Positions 15,629 to 30,600 of a stretch of DNA of 32,000 bases are shown in pieces. The DNA comes from Patescibacteria group bacterium. GTDB lineage: Bacteria > Patescibacteriota > Patescibacteriia > 2-12-FULL-60-25. The notes under the pieces were generated by a model, which saw only the letters and a list, made by a program, of their open reading frames with translations, searched no databases and was not told where the DNA came from. The position numbers were made by a program, and so were the translations under genes. The stretch lies in contig JBNLCE010000005.1 in assembly GCA_050303655.1 (NCBI GenBank), positions 1 to 32,000 of the forward strand. The letters run 5' to 3'. The stretch's first letter is position 1. Every line of letters begins with the position of its first letter.

Positions 15629-17242
15629 ATGATGCAAAACAGTCAACGAACTGCGCTGATTTCCGTCTACAACAAAGAGGGCATCGGCGACTTCGCCGGT
15701 GGGCTAATCGAACACGGCTTCCAGATCATTTCATCCGGAGGCACCGCAAAACGGCTTCGGCAGTGCGGTATTTCTGTGACGGATGTGAGGGAGATCTCGG
15801 GACTCGATCCGATTCTTAGGCACCGCGTCGTGACGCTTGTGCCTCAAATCCACGGTGGCCTCTTGGCCACATTGGACATGATGGAAGAGCTCGAAAGCCT
15901 CGGCTTTCCATGGATCGATCTGGTCTGCGTAGATCTCTATCCCCTTCAGGCGGAGATTGCGAAGCCAAAGGCAACCGAGAAGTCCGTCATCGACAAAACG
16001 GACATCGGTGGGCCAACCATGCTGAGAAGTGCGGCGAAGGGCCAACGGATCGTGATCTGCGACCCGGCGGACCGCGCGCGTGTTCTCACATGGCTCAAGG
16101 AAGGCGAACCCAACGCCGCGGAGTTCAAACGAGAGCTCGCAGCAAAGGCAGAAATGGTCTGCGCCGACTACTGCCTCGCCTCAGCGCGCTATCACGGGCA
16201 GGATCAATACGTGGGCCTACTCGGCACGCGCATCGATTCGCATCCGGTGCGATATGGAGAGAACCCTTCGTGGAACTCCACGCTCTACGCGACGAACGAT
16301 AACCACCCGCTCTCTCCGTGCAACTTCGGTCGGATTGAGGGGGCGGATCCAAGCTACGTCAATCTCACAGACCTGAACGCACTCACGGAGTACATGATCC
16401 AGATCTCCATGACGTACAGGCAAAACGTCGGACGCGTACCAAACATCGCCATCGGCGTGAAACACGGAAACGCCTGCGGAGCGGCGGCTTCAAACGATCC
16501 GTACCGCACCTTGCGGGACATGCTGGACGGCAATCCACGCGCGATCTTTGGCGCCATGGTGATGACAAACTTCGCCGTGGGCGCAAAGCACGCTGAGTCA
16601 CTTCGCCAGCACGGCATTCAGGAGGGAGCACCCGTACGGATTCTGGATGGCGTGGCCGCCCCAGCCGTTGCGCGCGATGCAATCGCAGCGCTTCGTCGTA
16701 AAGGCGGAAAGTGTCGGGTTTTCGTTAATGCGGCGCTCGCGCACATCAGGCCGGAATACGCGGTCCGTACGCGCATCCGTCCTGTGATAGGCGGTTTCCT
16801 CGTGCAAAGTGGCAAGCCGTACGTCCTGGACTTTGGAGCTCGGGGAATGGGCGGGTACGGAAAACTGGACGACCGCATGAAGTTCGACCTCTGCCTTGCG
16901 TATGCGATCGGTTCGCGGAGCACCAGCAACACCATCACGATCGTCAAGGAAGGCCAACTGATCGGCAACGGTGTGGGGCAACAAGACCGCGTCGGAGCGG
17001 CGCAACTCGCATCAAAACTCGCGCGCCAAAGTGGGCATAATACGCATGGAGCCGTCGCCTACAGCGATAGCTTTTTTCCGTTTCCTGACGGGATCCACGT
17101 TCTTGCTCATGCGGGCATCAAGGCGATCCTCACATCACGCGGTTCGATCAACGATGAAAAGGTCTTCACCGCCTGCCGTGAGCACGGCATCACTCTTGCG
17201 CACCTTCCCGACAAAGAATGTCGCGGGTTCTACGGTCACTGA
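15629..17242 (+). CDS. purH: Bifunctional AICAR transformylase / IMP cyclohydrolase
   Basis: N-terminal MGS-like domain (ALISVYNKEGI...SSGGTAK) and C-terminal AYSDSFFPFPDG...GSINDEKV...GFYGH. Start placed at the ATG at 15629 after AAAGGAG; the track's longer call overlaps yibE/F. Confidence 0.9.
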   Translation: MMQNSQRTALISVYNKEGIGDFAGGLIEHGFQIISSGGTAKRLRQCGISVTDVREISGLDPILRHRVVTLVPQIHGGLLATLDMMEELESLGFPWIDLVCVDLYPLQAEIAKPKATEKSVIDKTDIGGPTMLRSAAKGQRIVICDPADRARVLTWLKEGEPNAAEFKRELAAKAEMVCADYCLASARYHGQDQYVGLLGTRIDSHPVRYGENPSWNSTLYATNDNHPLSPCNFGRIEGADPSYVNLTDLNALTEYMIQISMTYRQNVGRVPNIAIGVKHGNACGAAASNDPYRTLRDMLDGNPRAIFGAMVMTNFAVGAKHAESLRQHGIQEGAPVRILDGVAAPAVARDAIAALRRKGGKCRVFVNAALAHIRPEYAVRTRIRPVIGGFLVQSGKPYVLDFGARGMGGYGKLDDRMKFDLCLAYAIGSRSTSNTITIVKEGQLIGNGVGQQDRVGAAQLASKLARQSGHNTHGAVAYSDSFFPFPDGIHVLAHAGIKAILTSRGSINDEKVFTACREHGITLAHLPDKECRGFYGH

Positions 17243-23657: not shown

Positions 23658-23811
23658 TTACCAAACCCTAAGGGGAGTTCATTCTAATGCCTTGAACGAA
23701 GAATATATTCTCCGAACGCAGCAAGACCGACGCTCTGCGAGCTCCGACGCATGTCGGAGAGCTGCTTCGCAGCAAGTGAGGAGGATGTATTCGAGTGAAA
23801 AGTCCGCAAAC

Positions 23812-27709: not shown

Positions 27710-27982
27710 ATGTTCTTCAAAAAGAAAAACAAAATGTCCTTTGACGTGTCTCGCGCGTCGCTTGCGGCAGGTTTGACCGCCGCCCTCTTCATGCTCGTGC
27801 TCAGTCTTTTAAATGCCGTTGGCGTGTATGAAAACGCCGCCATGCAGATGATGGAGTGGCATATGTTCTACGCCACCGACGTGACCGGTACGATCACCGG
27901 GATGATCGAGGCGTTCATTGTAACCTACGTCATGGTGTACGTTTTTGGCCACACGTACCATCACCTGGGTTCCAAGAAATAG
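27710..27982 (+). CDS. Small two-TM membrane protein
   Basis: 90 aa with two hydrophobic helices, followed by a strong terminator. The family is not securely recognised. Confidence 0.6.
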   Translation: MFFKKKNKMSFDVSRASLAAGLTAALFMLVLSLLNAVGVYENAAMQMMEWHMFYATDVTGTITGMIEAFIVTYVMVYVFGHTYHHLGSKK

Positions 27983-28000
27983 ATTTAATTGAAAGAAAGA

Positions 28001-28030
28001 ACGCCTCGCGAAGTCGCGGGGCGTTTTGAT
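28001..28030 (+). terminator. Rho-independent terminator
   Basis: ACGCCTCGCG-AAGT-CGCGGGGCGT followed by TTTTG. Confidence 0.8.
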
Positions 28031-28032
28031 TT

Positions 28033-28070
28033 AAAAACGCCCCGACCATGGAGTAACCACAGTCAGGGCG
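28033..28070 (-). terminator. Terminator of the small-ORF operon
   Basis: Minus strand reads CGCCCTGAC-15 nt-GTCGGGGCG followed by TTTTTAAAT, 44 nt after the ORFh stop. Confidence 0.6.
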
Positions 28071-28113
28071 CGTACGAGCCACCGAGTGAACCGGCGGCGA
28101 CTATCAGAACGCT

Positions 28114-28335
28114 TCAGCGCATCACTTCGCGGAACATTGCCGCGGTCACGCCGGGAAGCCCCCTGAGCGCCGTGATGGCCTCGTCCATCCGCTTCTCCCT
28201 CCACCACCGCACGGCGTCTTGCGCCATGCGAATGGGGGTGGTCATGACCGCACCGGCCACGAGGGTGATTGGGAGACGCGCGGTCTCCACCCACGCCTTC
28301 GCCCGACGGCGCGTAGCGCGAATGGAGGCACGCAT
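28114..28335 (-). CDS. Small ORF h (73 aa), one hydrophobic segment
   Basis: MRASIRATRRRAKAWVETARLPITLVAGAVMTTPIRMAQDAVRWWREKRMDEAITALRGLPGVTAAMFREVMR. This is the C-terminal part of the 138-aa track ORF; that ORF's N-terminal half is Arg/His junk overlapping ORFg. The ATG is 14 nt after the ORFg stop, with a weak SD. Confidence 0.45.
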   Translation of the reverse strand: MRASIRATRRRAKAWVETARLPITLVAGAVMTTPIRMAQDAVRWWREKRMDEAITALRGLPGVTAAMFREVMR

Positions 28336-28349
28336 CAGAAATGCCGGCC

Positions 28350-28523
28350 TCACACCCGTACTCCAATGGGAACGGTGAGCAGATCGCCGAGCTTTCTGAA
28401 CCCGACGTCGAACGCCCCCTCGAGGGTCATGAGCAGGGCGCCGATGATGCCGCCCATGATGCCCGCGAAGATGAGCGCGGCGATGAAGCCGGCTCCGAGT
28501 CCTGCCAAAAAATCTACTGCCAA
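28350..28523 (-). CDS. Small ORF g (57 aa): glycine-zipper membrane peptide, TTG start
   Basis: AAAGGAGG-TGCACC-TTG, then (M)AVDFLAGLGAGFIAALIFAGIMGGIIGALLMTLEGAFDVGFRKLGDLLTVPIGVRV. It is not in the ORF track (<60 aa). Confidence 0.6.
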   Translation of the reverse strand: MAVDFLAGLGAGFIAALIFAGIMGGIIGALLMTLEGAFDVGFRKLGDLLTVPIGVRV

Positions 28524-28547
28524 GGTGCACCTCCTTTTCTTTTGTTA

Positions 28548-28629
28548 CACCTACATCAGATTCGCAATGATTCGATATATCGTCAATTGGGGAGAGACAA
28601 TATCTCGAATGCGAACCTGGTGTAGGTGG
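28548..28629. repeat. Long imperfect inverted repeat (~30-bp arms)
   Basis: Left arm CACCTACATCAGATTCGCAATGATTCGATAT. The reverse complement of the right arm is CACCTACACCAGGTTCGCATTCGAGATAT. The centre contains TTGACG on the minus strand. Confidence 0.75.
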
Positions 28630-28656
28630 AGGAGCCGCGCGAGTGCGTGACTCCTC
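28629..28656 (-). repeat. Post-stop hairpin, copy D
   Basis: GAGGAGCCGCGC-GAGT-GCGTGACTCCTC, 8 nt from the ORFf stop codon (28665-28667). Confidence 0.75.
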
Positions 28657-28664
28657 TCAAAGAG

Positions 28665-28847
28665 CTAGTCGCTCTTCTTGTCACGCCGACGAGTCATCTC
28701 GTCGACGATCGCCTGGATGTGACCGTCCAGGTCGGTTCTTTCACAGTTCGATGACGTGATCTTTGATCGCGCCTCCGTGAGACGCTCCAGCTCCGCACGG
28801 AGCTCGTCATCGCCCATGTCCTTCAGAGCCTTGAGCTCATCACTCAT
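28665..28847 (-). CDS. Small ORF f (60 aa), helical; paralog of d and e
   Basis: AAGGAGG-TGGGCC-ATG. MSDELKALKDMGDDELRAELERLTEARSKITSSNCERTDLDGHIQAIVDEMTRRRDKKSD. The start overlaps the ORFe stop (ATGAGTGA). The track shows it only as the tail of a 120-aa shadow ORF. Confidence 0.65.
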   Translation of the reverse strand: MSDELKALKDMGDDELRAELERLTEARSKITSSNCERTDLDGHIQAIVDEMTRRRDKKSD

Positions 28848-29055
28848 GGCCCACCTCCTTCGTGTTGACGCGGATACCGCGCGTGCGACACACCGCGAGA
28901 ACTGATTCGATCTTCCGATCCATGCCGGTCTTCCCGACGTAGGAAGACCCTGACTTGCGCTGAAGCTTTGTGAACTCCTCGCGCGACGCGCGGAGCCTCT
29001 TGAGCTCCACCTTGAGCTCATCGTCATTCAGTGCCTCGTAATCAACTTCACTCAT
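28840..29055 (-). CDS. Small ORF e (71 aa), helical; paralog of d and f
   Basis: AAGGAGG-TGAGTC-ATG. MSEVDYEALNDDELKVELKRLRASREEF... Third codon positions are G/C-rich by eye. Confidence 0.65.
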   Translation of the reverse strand: MSEVDYEALNDDELKVELKRLRASREEFTKLQRKSGSSYVGKTGMDRKIESVLAVCRTRGIRVNTKEVGHE

Positions 29056-29087
29056 GACTCACCTCCTTGGTGAGGGATAGATCTGAA

Positions 29088-29156
29088 CTCTCAGAACTGC
29101 CGAAGGATTTCGGAAGTTCAGTTGAGTGGAGGAACCTGCGAGTTGCAAGCTCCTCC
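29088..29156 (-). repeat. Intercistronic two-hairpin element, copy A
   Basis: Forward strand: CTCTCA, GAACT-[GCCGAAGGATTTCGGA]-AGTTC, an 8-nt linker, then GAGGAACCTGC-GAGTT-GCAAGCTCCTC. It is 9 nt from the ORFd stop. Confidence 0.75.
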
Positions 29157-29165
29157 GGGTGGGTG

Positions 29166-29336
29166 TCAGCGTTTGTTGCGGACGGTGAATACTGCGTCGA
29201 TGATAACGATCCTGCGGTCGCCATTCGAACGCTCGGACTTATCACGCGCGAGCCGCTCGAGTTGCGCCATGAGCAGATACTGCTCCAAGCTATCGTTTGG
29301 CTGGTAGTTGCCGCTGAGGTAATTCTGATTTTGCAT
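29166..29336 (-). CDS. Small ORF d (56 aa); paralog of e and f
   Basis: GGGAGG-AAAAGG-ATG. MQNQNYLSGNYQPNDSLEQYLLMAQLERLARDKSERSNGDRRIVIIDAVFTVRNKR. It is not in the ORF track. Confidence 0.55.
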   Translation of the reverse strand: MQNQNYLSGNYQPNDSLEQYLLMAQLERLARDKSERSNGDRRIVIIDAVFTVRNKR

Positions 29337-29381
29337 CCTTTTCCTCCCGAGTTAAAGGGGCTGTTTATTCCCCGATTTCAT

Positions 29382-29439
29382 CTCTCAAATTTCTTTCAGA
29401 AATGGAATCGGGAGAGGAACGTCGAGTGACGTTCCTCTC
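29382..29439 (-). repeat. Intercistronic two-hairpin element, copy C
   Basis: CTCTCA, ATTTCT-TTC-AGAAAT, an 8-nt linker, then GAGAGGAACGTC-GAGT-GACGTTCCTCTC (perfect 12-bp stem). It is 7 nt from the ORFc stop. Confidence 0.8.
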
Positions 29440-29446
29440 GTGCGGC

Positions 29447-29803
29447 TTACGCCGCGATGGCGTTGATTTGAGCATCTTCGCTATAGAGCACGAAGACGTT
29501 TCTCGCCTCATGCAGAAGCGCCAGTCTCCACTCTACAGGAATCCCTGCTCGCATGAGCAACCGTCGTGTCGTGACTCGACGACTCGAGATCGAGAGGCCG
29601 TAGGCGAGCTCGTTCAGCAAGCTCCTCATCGCCTTCTTGATCTCCATGGCGGCTCTCACGCTCTGATCGTCTTGATCCAAAAGCGTGTAGAAAGCCTCTA
29701 GAGCTCTCCGCACCCGCCTCGGCGGCGCGGTCATGATCGCGCCTTCCGGCTTGTTGATGTCACCAAACTCAGTCGACTTCCCAGTCAAATTCAGTACGAG
29801 CAT
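29447..29803 (-). CDS. Small ORF c (118 aa) with possible C-terminal HTH
   Basis: GGGAGGA-TGCA-ATG. The C-terminal segment NELAYGLSISSRRVTTRRLLMRAG resembles sigma-70 region-4 or other HTH helices, but this similarity is weak. Confidence 0.6.
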   Translation of the reverse strand: MLVLNLTGKSTEFGDINKPEGAIMTAPPRRVRRALEAFYTLLDQDDQSVRAAMEIKKAMRSLLNELAYGLSISSRRVTTRRLLMRAGIPVEWRLALLHEARNVFVLYSEDAQINAIAA

Positions 29804-29843
29804 TGCATCCTCCCTCTCTGCCTTTCAGGCAGATTTTGGTTTA

Positions 29844-29910
29844 CTCTCAGAACGCTCGAATGATTCAAACGTTCAATTGAGCGAGGAACCATGCGAGCGC
29901 ATAGTTCCTC
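29844..29910 (-). repeat. Intercistronic two-hairpin element, copy B
   Basis: CTCTCA, GAACG-[CTCGAATGATTCAAA]-CGTTC, an 8-nt linker, then GAGGAACCATGC-GAGC-GCATAGTTCCTC. It is 10 nt from the ORFb stop. Confidence 0.8.
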
Positions 29911-29920
29911 TTCGCCGCTG

Positions 29921-30160
29921 TTACGCGGCGTACTTCTCGTCTAGCCTACGGAGCTTCCGACGTAGATCGCGGATCTCACGCTTCAGCTCCTTGCTCCTCT
30001 CGTCCAACCGAGCGCGTTGCTCGTACACCGAGAATCCCATCGGGTTGAACCCGCCGGGTCCGCCGAACAAAGTCGTCTCCAGAGAGGAGCGGCGCTTTCG
30101 CAGGTCGCGAAGCGCATCTTCCCTACGCGCGATGGAGTCGTGAATCTCGGGCCTCGTCAT
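29921..30160 (-). CDS. Small ORF b (79 aa), coiled-coil ends with a Gly-rich centre
   Basis: AAGGAGG-TGAAGTG-ATG. MTRPEIHDSIARREDALRDLRKRR...GGPGGFNPMG...LKREIRDLRRKLRRLDEKYAA. The ATG shares one nt with the ORFa stop (TGATG). Confidence 0.65.
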   Translation of the reverse strand: MTRPEIHDSIARREDALRDLRKRRSSLETTLFGGPGGFNPMGFSVYEQRARLDERSKELKREIRDLRRKLRRLDEKYAA

Positions 30161-30264
30161 CACTTCACCTCCTTCTCGATATCGTGGTCGCAGTCGCCCA
30201 AGACCAACTCGGCCAAGCGGGCAACGATCTCATTGATACGAGTCTGATTTTCCGAATTTTCCAT
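30160..30264 (-). CDS. Small ORF a (34 aa)
   Basis: GAGGAGG-AATC-ATG. MENSENQTRINEIVARLAELVLGDCDHDIEKEVK. It is not in the ORF track. A competing 15-codon out-of-frame uORF starts at 30277. Confidence 0.45.
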   Translation of the reverse strand: MENSENQTRINEIVARLAELVLGDCDHDIEKEVK

Positions 30265-30358
30265 GATTCCTCCTCATTTATTCACTCCTGATCCCCTCTG
30301 ATCAGAAGCCCCTCGAATGGGAGAATGATTTCTCCTATTTGAGGGTAGATTGTCGAAG

Positions 30359-30426
30359 TAACAATAAAACGTGATAGGAATAGGGCCTTTTATAGAAAAA
30401 GCGCGATTCCTACCACGTTTTGGTAG
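30359..30426 (-). terminator. Leader terminator/antiterminator pair
   Basis: On the mRNA: ACGUGGUAGGAAU-24 nt-AUUCCUAUCACGU followed by UUUAUUGUU. The upstream hairpin CUACCA-AAACG-UGGUAG uses the same UGGUAG. Confidence 0.55.
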
Positions 30427-30477
30427 ATATCTGCCCGCTCTCCCCTTCGGACGTATTCTTCAAGTTTTAACAAGAAC

Positions 30478-30506
30478 AATATAGCACCTTTTGGAAGTTT
30501 TGTCAA
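30478..30506 (-). promoter_or_regulatory. Near-consensus sigma-70 promoter of the small-ORF operon
   Basis: Minus strand reads TTGACA-17 nt-TATATT with TG at the extended -10 position (TGCTATATT). Confidence 0.7.
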
Positions 30507-30600
30507 GTCCCCTTTGCATGGGGGTTAAAAATGGCTTATTTTAGGGAAGATTTTGACGAAACGCTCGCGAACCGCTACAAAACCCCCTATAATTACCTCT

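Follow-up and report, generated by a model that had tools for sequence, protein, structure and literature searches.

Four related hairpins after stop codons in an orphan operon of a Patescibacteria group bacterium: candidates for intercistronic mRNA punctuation

An operon of eight small open reading frames (ORFa to ORFh, 34–118 aa, all on the minus strand) was analysed in a 32 000-nt stretch of DNA from a Patescibacteria group bacterium (assembly GCA_050303655.1, contig JBNLCE010000005.1, positions 1 to 32 000; hereafter the window). Four related hairpins (HP1) sit after the stop codons of ORFb, ORFc, ORFd and ORFf, and a longer hairpin (HP2) adjoins each of them without a gap; the observations support HP1 as a selected structure and not a chance palindrome. 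The resulting modules form a new and very small family of intercistronic structured RNA, known from one orphan operon, although the general kind is already known. As to their function, intercistronic mRNA punctuation is the reading that we prefer, and we hold it tentatively.

HP1 hairpins and their pairing

An earlier note on this DNA, made from the letters alone, had listed four hairpin copies that start 7–10 nt past the stop codons. Their coordinates and sequences proved correct (Table 1), and the distances were measured as 10, 7, 9 and 8 nt for copies B, C, A and D, respectively. On the mRNA the copies follow the consensus GAGGARY-(2–4 variable pairs)-C-RCUC-G-(partners)-RYUCCUC; each consists of 12 bp and a loop of 4–5 nt (28–29 nt in all) and folds with an energy of -18.4 to -20.7 kcal/mol (z-scores of -4.6 to -7.3; none of 500 shuffled sequences was equally stable). 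The pattern GAGGARC-N10-18-YTCCTC was matched at four sites only in the 32 kb, compared with 0.04 expected from shuffles.

The sequence was extended by a second assembly of the organism (GCA_050305315.1), which is 100% identical over the overlap and adds 9.6 kb beyond the window, giving 41.6 kb in total. No further HP1 copy was found in the added 9.6 kb, and all four lie within 1.3 kb. The earlier note had named a generic genome-wide repetitive extragenic palindromic (REP) element as the outcome that would argue against a structure belonging to this operon; with four copies in 1.3 kb and none in the other ∼40 kb examined, an identity as REP or bacterial interspersed mosaic element was rejected, and no REP-associated tyrosine (RAYT/Y1) transposase domain was found among the genes of the 41.6 kb. 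An origin of the modules or of HP2-D as a miniature inverted-repeat transposable element or other repeat was rejected for lack of other copies in the same sequence. The copies do not form a CRISPR array, since the repeats are not identical and the spacings of 284–500 nt hold ORFs preceded by Shine–Dalgarno (SD) sequences.

The compensatory stem changes described in the earlier note were borne out. Pair 6 is A-U, A-U, G.U and G-C across the copies, and the apical pairs are wholly different from copy to copy yet remain paired, bar one A.C mismatch. When aligned with MAFFT, the four copies did not line up symmetrically on the two sides of the stem, so the loop was used as the anchor instead and copy A was held out. 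With B, C and D anchored in this way, 97% of the cells pair and eight of the 12 pairs change on both sides, part of this covariation signal arising from a 2-nt register shift of copy C, with little power to be had from three or four sequences; none of 500 shuffles did as well, and slid registers gave 36–53% pairing. The earlier note had proposed a covariance model as a check; one trained on B, C and D (R1) recovered the held-out copy A as its best non-training match (22.1 bits, E = 0.012), and all of its other matches in the 41.6 kb scored 15.5 bits or less and were generic hairpins or terminators.

The arms had also been described as SD-like (5′) and anti-SD-like (3′). This holds for the sequence, the base helix of HP1 copying an SD:anti-SD duplex; no conserved start codon or other sign of ribosome use was found at these arms. 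Stop-codon read-through or a small ORF within HP1 was rejected, as the 15–16-codon in-frame extensions end at UGA in B, C and A, their peptides are unrelated and starts are not conserved.

The hairpins might instead be functionless relics of a serial tandem duplication of a gene together with its intergenic unit. ORFe and ORFf are indeed paralogues, and an ELxRL-type motif, read from the sequences, is common to ORFd, ORFe and ORFf; blastn nevertheless detects no similarity between the modules, in which the 12-bp pairing has been kept through double changes. Since drift alone would have destroyed the pairing, selection on the stems is indicated, and we consider relics very improbable.

Composite modules and the strand on which they act

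Each of the four intergenic regions folds far better than its shuffles (z of -4.8 to -7.8), and the same layout recurs in all modules: stop codon, 7–10 nt, HP1 and then HP2. The second hairpin that had been reported for A, B and C is present in these modules, but it is not confined to them, as D has one too (28548–28628); similarly, the UGAGAG box found in A, B and C also occurs in D (28654–28659). The 8-nt linker that had been described between the two hairpins did not stand as a separate part. In A and B its RCUC pairs with the GAGU of the UGAGAG box to form the outer helix of HP2, and it is because of this pairing that HP1 and HP2 abut. The second hairpin covaries as had been proposed: between HP2-A and HP2-B there are two double compensatory changes and one further change on a single side. 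Distances from UGAGAG to the next start codon are 40, 45 and 32 nt, in agreement with the 32–45 nt given before. Of the 11 occurrences of UGAGAG in the window, a number that overall is at the chance level, five fall within this 1.2-kb stretch on its minus strand.

In three of the four modules (B, C and D; z of -3.9 to -4.7) the stop codon is enclosed in the loop of a third, small hairpin (HP0), which module A lacks. The proteins encoded by ORFb and ORFc both end in Ala-Ala (…KYAA and …AIAA; minus strand, 29921–29929 and 29447–29455), and the corresponding GCC GCG and GCG GCG codons form the 5′ arms of the HP0 stop-codon hairpins. A C-terminal AA recalls the ssrA-type degrons of ClpXP. A possible degenerate fifth module follows the stop codon of ORFh (Table 1); it was not detected by model R1.

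The earlier note had described these elements on the mRNA. Counted from the pair lists and folds, HP1 and HP2 together contain eight G.U pairs and two A.C mismatches on the minus strand, and the counts are reversed on the plus strand. The HP1 energies are -18.9, -20.7, -20.6 and -18.4 kcal/mol in the sense orientation and -14.6, -20.7, -12.4 and -17.4 kcal/mol in the antisense orientation, summing to -78.6 and -65.1 kcal/mol, respectively. All four copies carry the asymmetric loop C-RCUC-G in one and the same orientation. The wobble bias is suggestive of HP1 and HP2 acting as RNA in the mRNA sense (a simple sign test gave p ∼ 0.05, which is not conclusive), and the HP1 energies support the same orientation.

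Relatives of the modules were sought in several collections. At the gathering threshold Rfam returned only a tRNA elsewhere in the window, and in E-value mode nothing exceeded 21 bits, every match being far below the threshold of its family. In viral contigs a loose HP1 pattern gave more than 120 single matches with poor stems, mostly GAGGAG…CTCCTC runs, a strict one gave seven single matches of which none is a hairpin, and the HP2 pattern of A and B gave none. The composite pattern (HP1 plus UGAGAG) had one match in genome contigs, dismissed as chance because it lies inside a 591-aa ORF, and none in metagenomes; the strict HP1-plus-loop pattern gave at least 120 single matches in metagenomes, with no second copy and no box among the matches listed. 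The matches listed from viral, genome and metagenome contigs were single and chance-like, mostly within coding sequence, and had no second copy. The whole operon gave no blastn match to phages or plasmids.

Possible functions of the modules

Read as intercistronic mRNA punctuation, each module would combine a 3′ protective hairpin with a processing site or a 5′ protective hairpin, and would be built of HP0 with the stop codon in its loop (in three of the four), HP1 and HP2. An endoribonuclease would cut in or beside HP2, either RNase III through the helix or RNase E or Y through the A/U-containing 8-nt stretch, which would become a single-strand target when the weak outer helix of HP2 opens. 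HP2 is proposed as a candidate substrate of the RNase III type on the length and internal-loop layout of its predicted folds; set against the requirement of about two turns of double-stranded RNA, the predicted helices amount to ∼31 bp in HP2-D, 16 bp in HP2-C and 4 bp, a loop and 10–11 bp in HP2-A and HP2-B. HP1 would then block 3′-to-5′ exonucleases and stabilize the upstream cistron, and would stay folded because at 7–10 nt past the stop codon it lies, by our own estimate, just outside the footprint of the terminating ribosome. What remains of HP2 would cap the 5′ end of the downstream cistron. Stability and translation would in this way be set separately for five segments of the mRNA, [a-b][c][d][e-f][g-h]; the division of one operon into these cassettes, made in the earlier note, is supported.

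Such arrangements have precedents. Protective hairpins at 3′ ends (malE-malF; consecutive in menBCE) and protective structures at 5′ ends after cleavage (papBA) shape operon stoichiometry, and the present modules resemble the malE-malF REP, menBCE and papBA cases in being stable intercistronic hairpins without a U-tract, placed such that they would end upstream segments, start downstream segments or both, several per operon being possible (PMC5927463). They differ in that their sequences are related, with base and loop conserved, in being confined to one operon and in their fixed HP1–HP2 array (plus HP0 in three of four), whereas the protective hairpins of Escherichia coli are mutually unrelated in sequence or are genome-wide REPs. 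The RNase III processing sites in the early operon of phage T7, reportedly described by Dunn and Studier as single hairpins of ∼50–60 nt, are a second case. They are related hairpins between consecutive small genes, and cleavage leaves a 3′ hairpin that stabilizes the upstream message. The modules share with them the relatedness of intercistronic hairpins along one long transcript and, in the predicted folds of HP2-A and HP2-B, the internal loops; they have no sequence similarity to the T7 sites and consist of a short perfect hairpin followed by a second helix. No phage context was detected for the operon with PHROGs or with blastn against phages.

Several points weigh against punctuation of this kind. 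A passive exonuclease barrier needs no conserved base and loop, and for RNase III an outer helix of 4 bp, as in HP2-A and HP2-B, is short. With four copies from one genome the covariation statistics are weak and depend in part on the alignment. NrdD and other housekeeping proteins of the organism fall into 90% clusters with one member, so that the lineage is essentially unsampled and all comparative tests are limited; no relatives were found in any of the collections searched from which the larger alignment asked for in the earlier note could have been made.

The conserved base (GAGGARY/RYUCCUC) and loop (C-RCUC-G), separated by a variable stem, suggest that a sequence-specific factor, be it a nuclease or a binding protein, reads HP1. 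HP1 could accordingly be an operator for a sequence-specific RNA-binding protein (an orphan of the operon or a host factor) that controls translation, antitermination or protection cassette by cassette, in the manner of boxB/N, the MS2 operator or the Cas6/Csy4 hairpins. A conserved base and loop with a free apical stem is the pattern to be expected if a protein reads them. Also in favour are the restriction of the copies to one operon and, as read from the protein sequences, an arginine-rich N-terminus in ORFh and an apparent helix-turn-helix-like stretch in ORFc. No operon protein, however, matches any RNA-binding family, and the AlphaFold model of ORFc was unusable and was not used (predicted local distance difference test score of 42). 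An operator of this kind, which could coexist with processing, is a possible but unlikely explanation. A further extension, that the operon encodes its own punctuation system in which an orphan protein recognizes the HP1 base and loop and cuts or caps the mRNA at each module, would be a long shot.

Termination was the next role to be weighed. As stable GC-rich hairpins in the sense orientation just past stop codons, the HP1 copies have the position of intrinsic terminators, but this identity was rejected because no U-tract follows the stem: the sequences after HP1 are GCUCAAUU, CCGAUUCC, ACUCAACU and CACCUACA, without a U-run, and a terminator scan flagged no HP1. There remains a U-tract-less or factor-dependent partial terminator that would lower expression stepwise along the operon. 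This role, which the earlier note had suggested among others, is weakened because the other terminators of the organism (that of the operon itself and two more in the genome) consist of a hairpin and a U-tract; moreover, HP1 abuts another helix. We regard partial termination as improbable.

Action at the DNA level would make the palindromes either boundaries of recombination cassettes or double-stranded operators (GAGGAAC-N14-GTTCCTC) for a dimeric protein. The region does have the look of a cassette array: the small orphan ORFs are promoterless, a palindrome comes after each of them, and all share one orientation behind a single promoter. In the same respects it recalls integron attC sites and clusters of attC sites lacking integron integrases (CALIN), which were reportedly treated by Cury et al. 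in 2016: palindromes of one orientation lie right after small, promoterless and mostly orphan ORFs behind one promoter, and structure is kept better than sequence. The spacing and the presence of at least two sites of the same orientation fit CALIN, yet the sites fail the definition of attC. The R-box consensus is absent, the RYYYAAC/GTTRRRY boxes being unmatched; the arms GAGGAAC/GTTCCTC swap purines and pyrimidines at the degenerate positions, and copy D, like one arm of A, no longer has AAC/GTT. The length of 57–141 nt and the extrahelical bases of attC are likewise missing from HP1, which has 28–29 nt and is fully paired, and no integrase, transposase or other recombinase was found in the 41.6 kb. 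The PeSL elements of T4-type phages, which join an early σ70 promoter to a stem-loop and serve as a recombination point, are similar in that repeated composite intergenic motifs with a stem-loop flank small orphan genes (PMC2839356, PMC4122927). In contrast to PeSL, no promoter was detected in the modules and nothing indicates shuffling; this identity was rejected for want of an early σ70 promoter fused to the stem-loop, the operon promoter being the only such site within 27900–30600. No cassette with the same hairpin appeared among the matches listed from the viral, genome and metagenome collections, and both the asymmetric C-RCUC-G centre, with its single orientation, and the G.U bias favour RNA. 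A DNA-level element is judged highly improbable.

The operon, its surroundings and the significance of the modules

The sole σ70-type promoter and the sole U-tract terminator mark the ends of the single transcription unit of the operon, which would be transcribed as one polycistronic mRNA of ∼2.4 kb, with the promoter (30506) at one end and the terminator (∼28037) at the other. Promoters of this organism are readily recognized (TTGACA-17-TGnTATxxT), and that of the operon shares its form with two others of the genome. An internal promoter was rejected, no σ70 match being found within the modules or the operon; module D holds a weak TTGACG-17-GAATCT. The sequence GAAC-N19/20-TCTGA in A and B resembles an extracytoplasmic function (ECF) σE promoter. 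It was rejected since the spacing is 1–2 nt too long, C and D lack it and its halves are explained by HP2 pairing. Within the 5′ leader, a hairpin with 26-nt arms (30366–30421, minus strand) has a core, AGGAAU/AUUCCU, that resembles the base of HP1.

Table 1. Features of the operon and its modules (positions in the window)
Feature	Positions	Strand	Description	Score or remark
Promoter	30478..30506	-	TTGACA-17-TATATT with TG-extended -10	11/12 matches
5′ leader	30265..30471	-	structured, 207 nt, four consecutive hairpins	z -4.7
ORFa	30160..30264	-	34 aa, orphan	
ORFb	29921..30160	-	79 aa, coiled-coil-like orphan	start overlaps ORFa stop (TGATG)
HP0-B	29913..29930	-	6-bp hairpin, ORFb stop (UAA) in loop	z -4.65; ends 2 nt before HP1-B
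HP1-B	29883..29910	-	GAGGAACUAUGC-GCUC-GCAUGGUUCCUC	
HP2-B	29843..29882	-	4-bp outer helix (GCUC/GAGU), 4x3 internal loop, 11-bp upper stem; UGAGAG 29844-29849	z -4.3
ORFc	29447..29803	-	118 aa, orphan	without homologue in sets of 5.8 G and 1.84 G proteins
HP0-C	29442..29455	-	GCGGC-GUAA-GCCGC, stop codon in loop	z -3.9; ends 2 nt before HP1-C
HP1-C	29412..29439	-	GAGAGGAACGUC-ACUC-GACGUUCCUCUC	
HP2-C	29372..29411	-	6+7+3 bp (16 bp), single-base interruptions; UGAGAG 29382-29387 in 3′ strand	z -5.7
ORFd	29166..29336	-	56 aa, orphan	
HP1-A	29128..29156	-	GGAGGAGCUUGC-AACUC-GCAGGUUCCUCC	two G.U pairs in mRNA sense
HP2-A	29087..29127	-	4-bp outer helix (ACUC/GAGU), 4x3 internal loop, 5+5 bp upper stem; UGAGAG 29088-29093	z -4.1
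ORFe	28840..29055	-	71 aa, orphan	ORFf paralogue (E 4e-6)
ORFf	28665..28847	-	60 aa	start overlaps ORFe end
HP0-D	28659..28677	-	AAGAGCG-ACUAG-CUCUUUG, UAG stop at loop	z -4.4; ends 2 nt before HP1-D
HP1-D	28629..28656	-	GAGGAGUCACGC-ACUC-GCGCGGCUCCUC	UGAGAG 28654-28659 overlaps 5′ base
HP2-D	28548..28628	-	81 nt, ∼31 bp, directly abuts HP1-D	z -9.0
ORFg	28350..28523	-	57 aa, hydrophobic, TTG start behind AAGGAGG	uncertain call
ORFh	28114..28335	-	73 aa, arginine-rich N-terminus	
Possible fifth module	28078..28110	-	degenerate; GUUCUGAUAGU (one mismatch to A/B box), then 8-bp hairpin with CACUCG	weak
Terminator	28037..28071	-	canonical, hairpin and U-tract	overlaps bidirectional palindrome 28017-28044

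A strong SD of the GGAGG type precedes every ORF from a to g, and ORFh has a weak GAGG 13 nt before its start. Just before ORFe (29056–29080, minus strand) lies a hairpin, CUCACC-AAGGA-GGUGAG, whose loop and 3′ arm contain the SD; a loop GGA that overlaps the SD is what we take to be a CsrA-site-like layout. The public annotation instead calls a plus-strand ORF at 28341–28625 (94 aa, acidic and of low complexity), antisense to ORFg; this call looks spurious. The GC content is 65% over ORFg–ORFh (28001–28500), compared with 44–46% in the 1 kb just upstream and ∼52% in the window overall, a contrast that points to horizontal acquisition of this end of the operon at least.

No family match was obtained for the eight operon proteins in Pfam, PHROGs, NCBIfam or PADLOC, only sub-threshold coiled-coil noise. 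ORFb, ORFc and ORFe matched only themselves among 5.8 billion proteins, as did ORFc in an exhaustive scan of 1.84 billion representatives.

Other repeats were noted in the window and in L122, the same contig region extending past the window and numbered in its own coordinates. Two copies of a 116-nt intergenic stretch, 87% identical, were seen at window 23685–23800, between the VIT1 and RRM genes, and at L122 12205–12317, ∼1.6 kb past the right-hand end of the window and before the BacA gene; Rfam gave no match at the window copy. At L122 14500–15260 two paralogous small ORFs (65 and 63 aa), each with its own TTGACA promoter, have almost the same terminator, GAGCAGC…GGGCUGCUCUUUAUUUU; gene and regulatory sequence form a further locally duplicated unit here, one with canonical U-tract terminators. 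The sequence TGGCAGCCCGTAGGGGAATCG is found twice, ∼155 nt apart, at L122 ∼15800–16060 and looks like the 3′ end of a tRNA gene; the pair might reflect an att-site type of duplication in which part of a tRNA was copied.

The source lineage has barely been sampled, and the present value of the modules is mainly that of a well documented candidate with four copies in a single genome. An operon-encoded reader, if real, would be a natural and self-contained counterpart of the Csy4 and RNase III insulators used in synthetic operons, and such a system would have no relative in current databases. If the modules process or insulate mRNA, they would constitute a compact, sequence-defined form of punctuation, in which a hairpin at the stop codon is joined by a 3′ cap and by a hairpin for processing or 5′ capping, and a functional module would be reusable as an insulator part. 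Punctuation of this kind would, if true, show how tiny orphan genes obtain individually tuned expression from one promoter.

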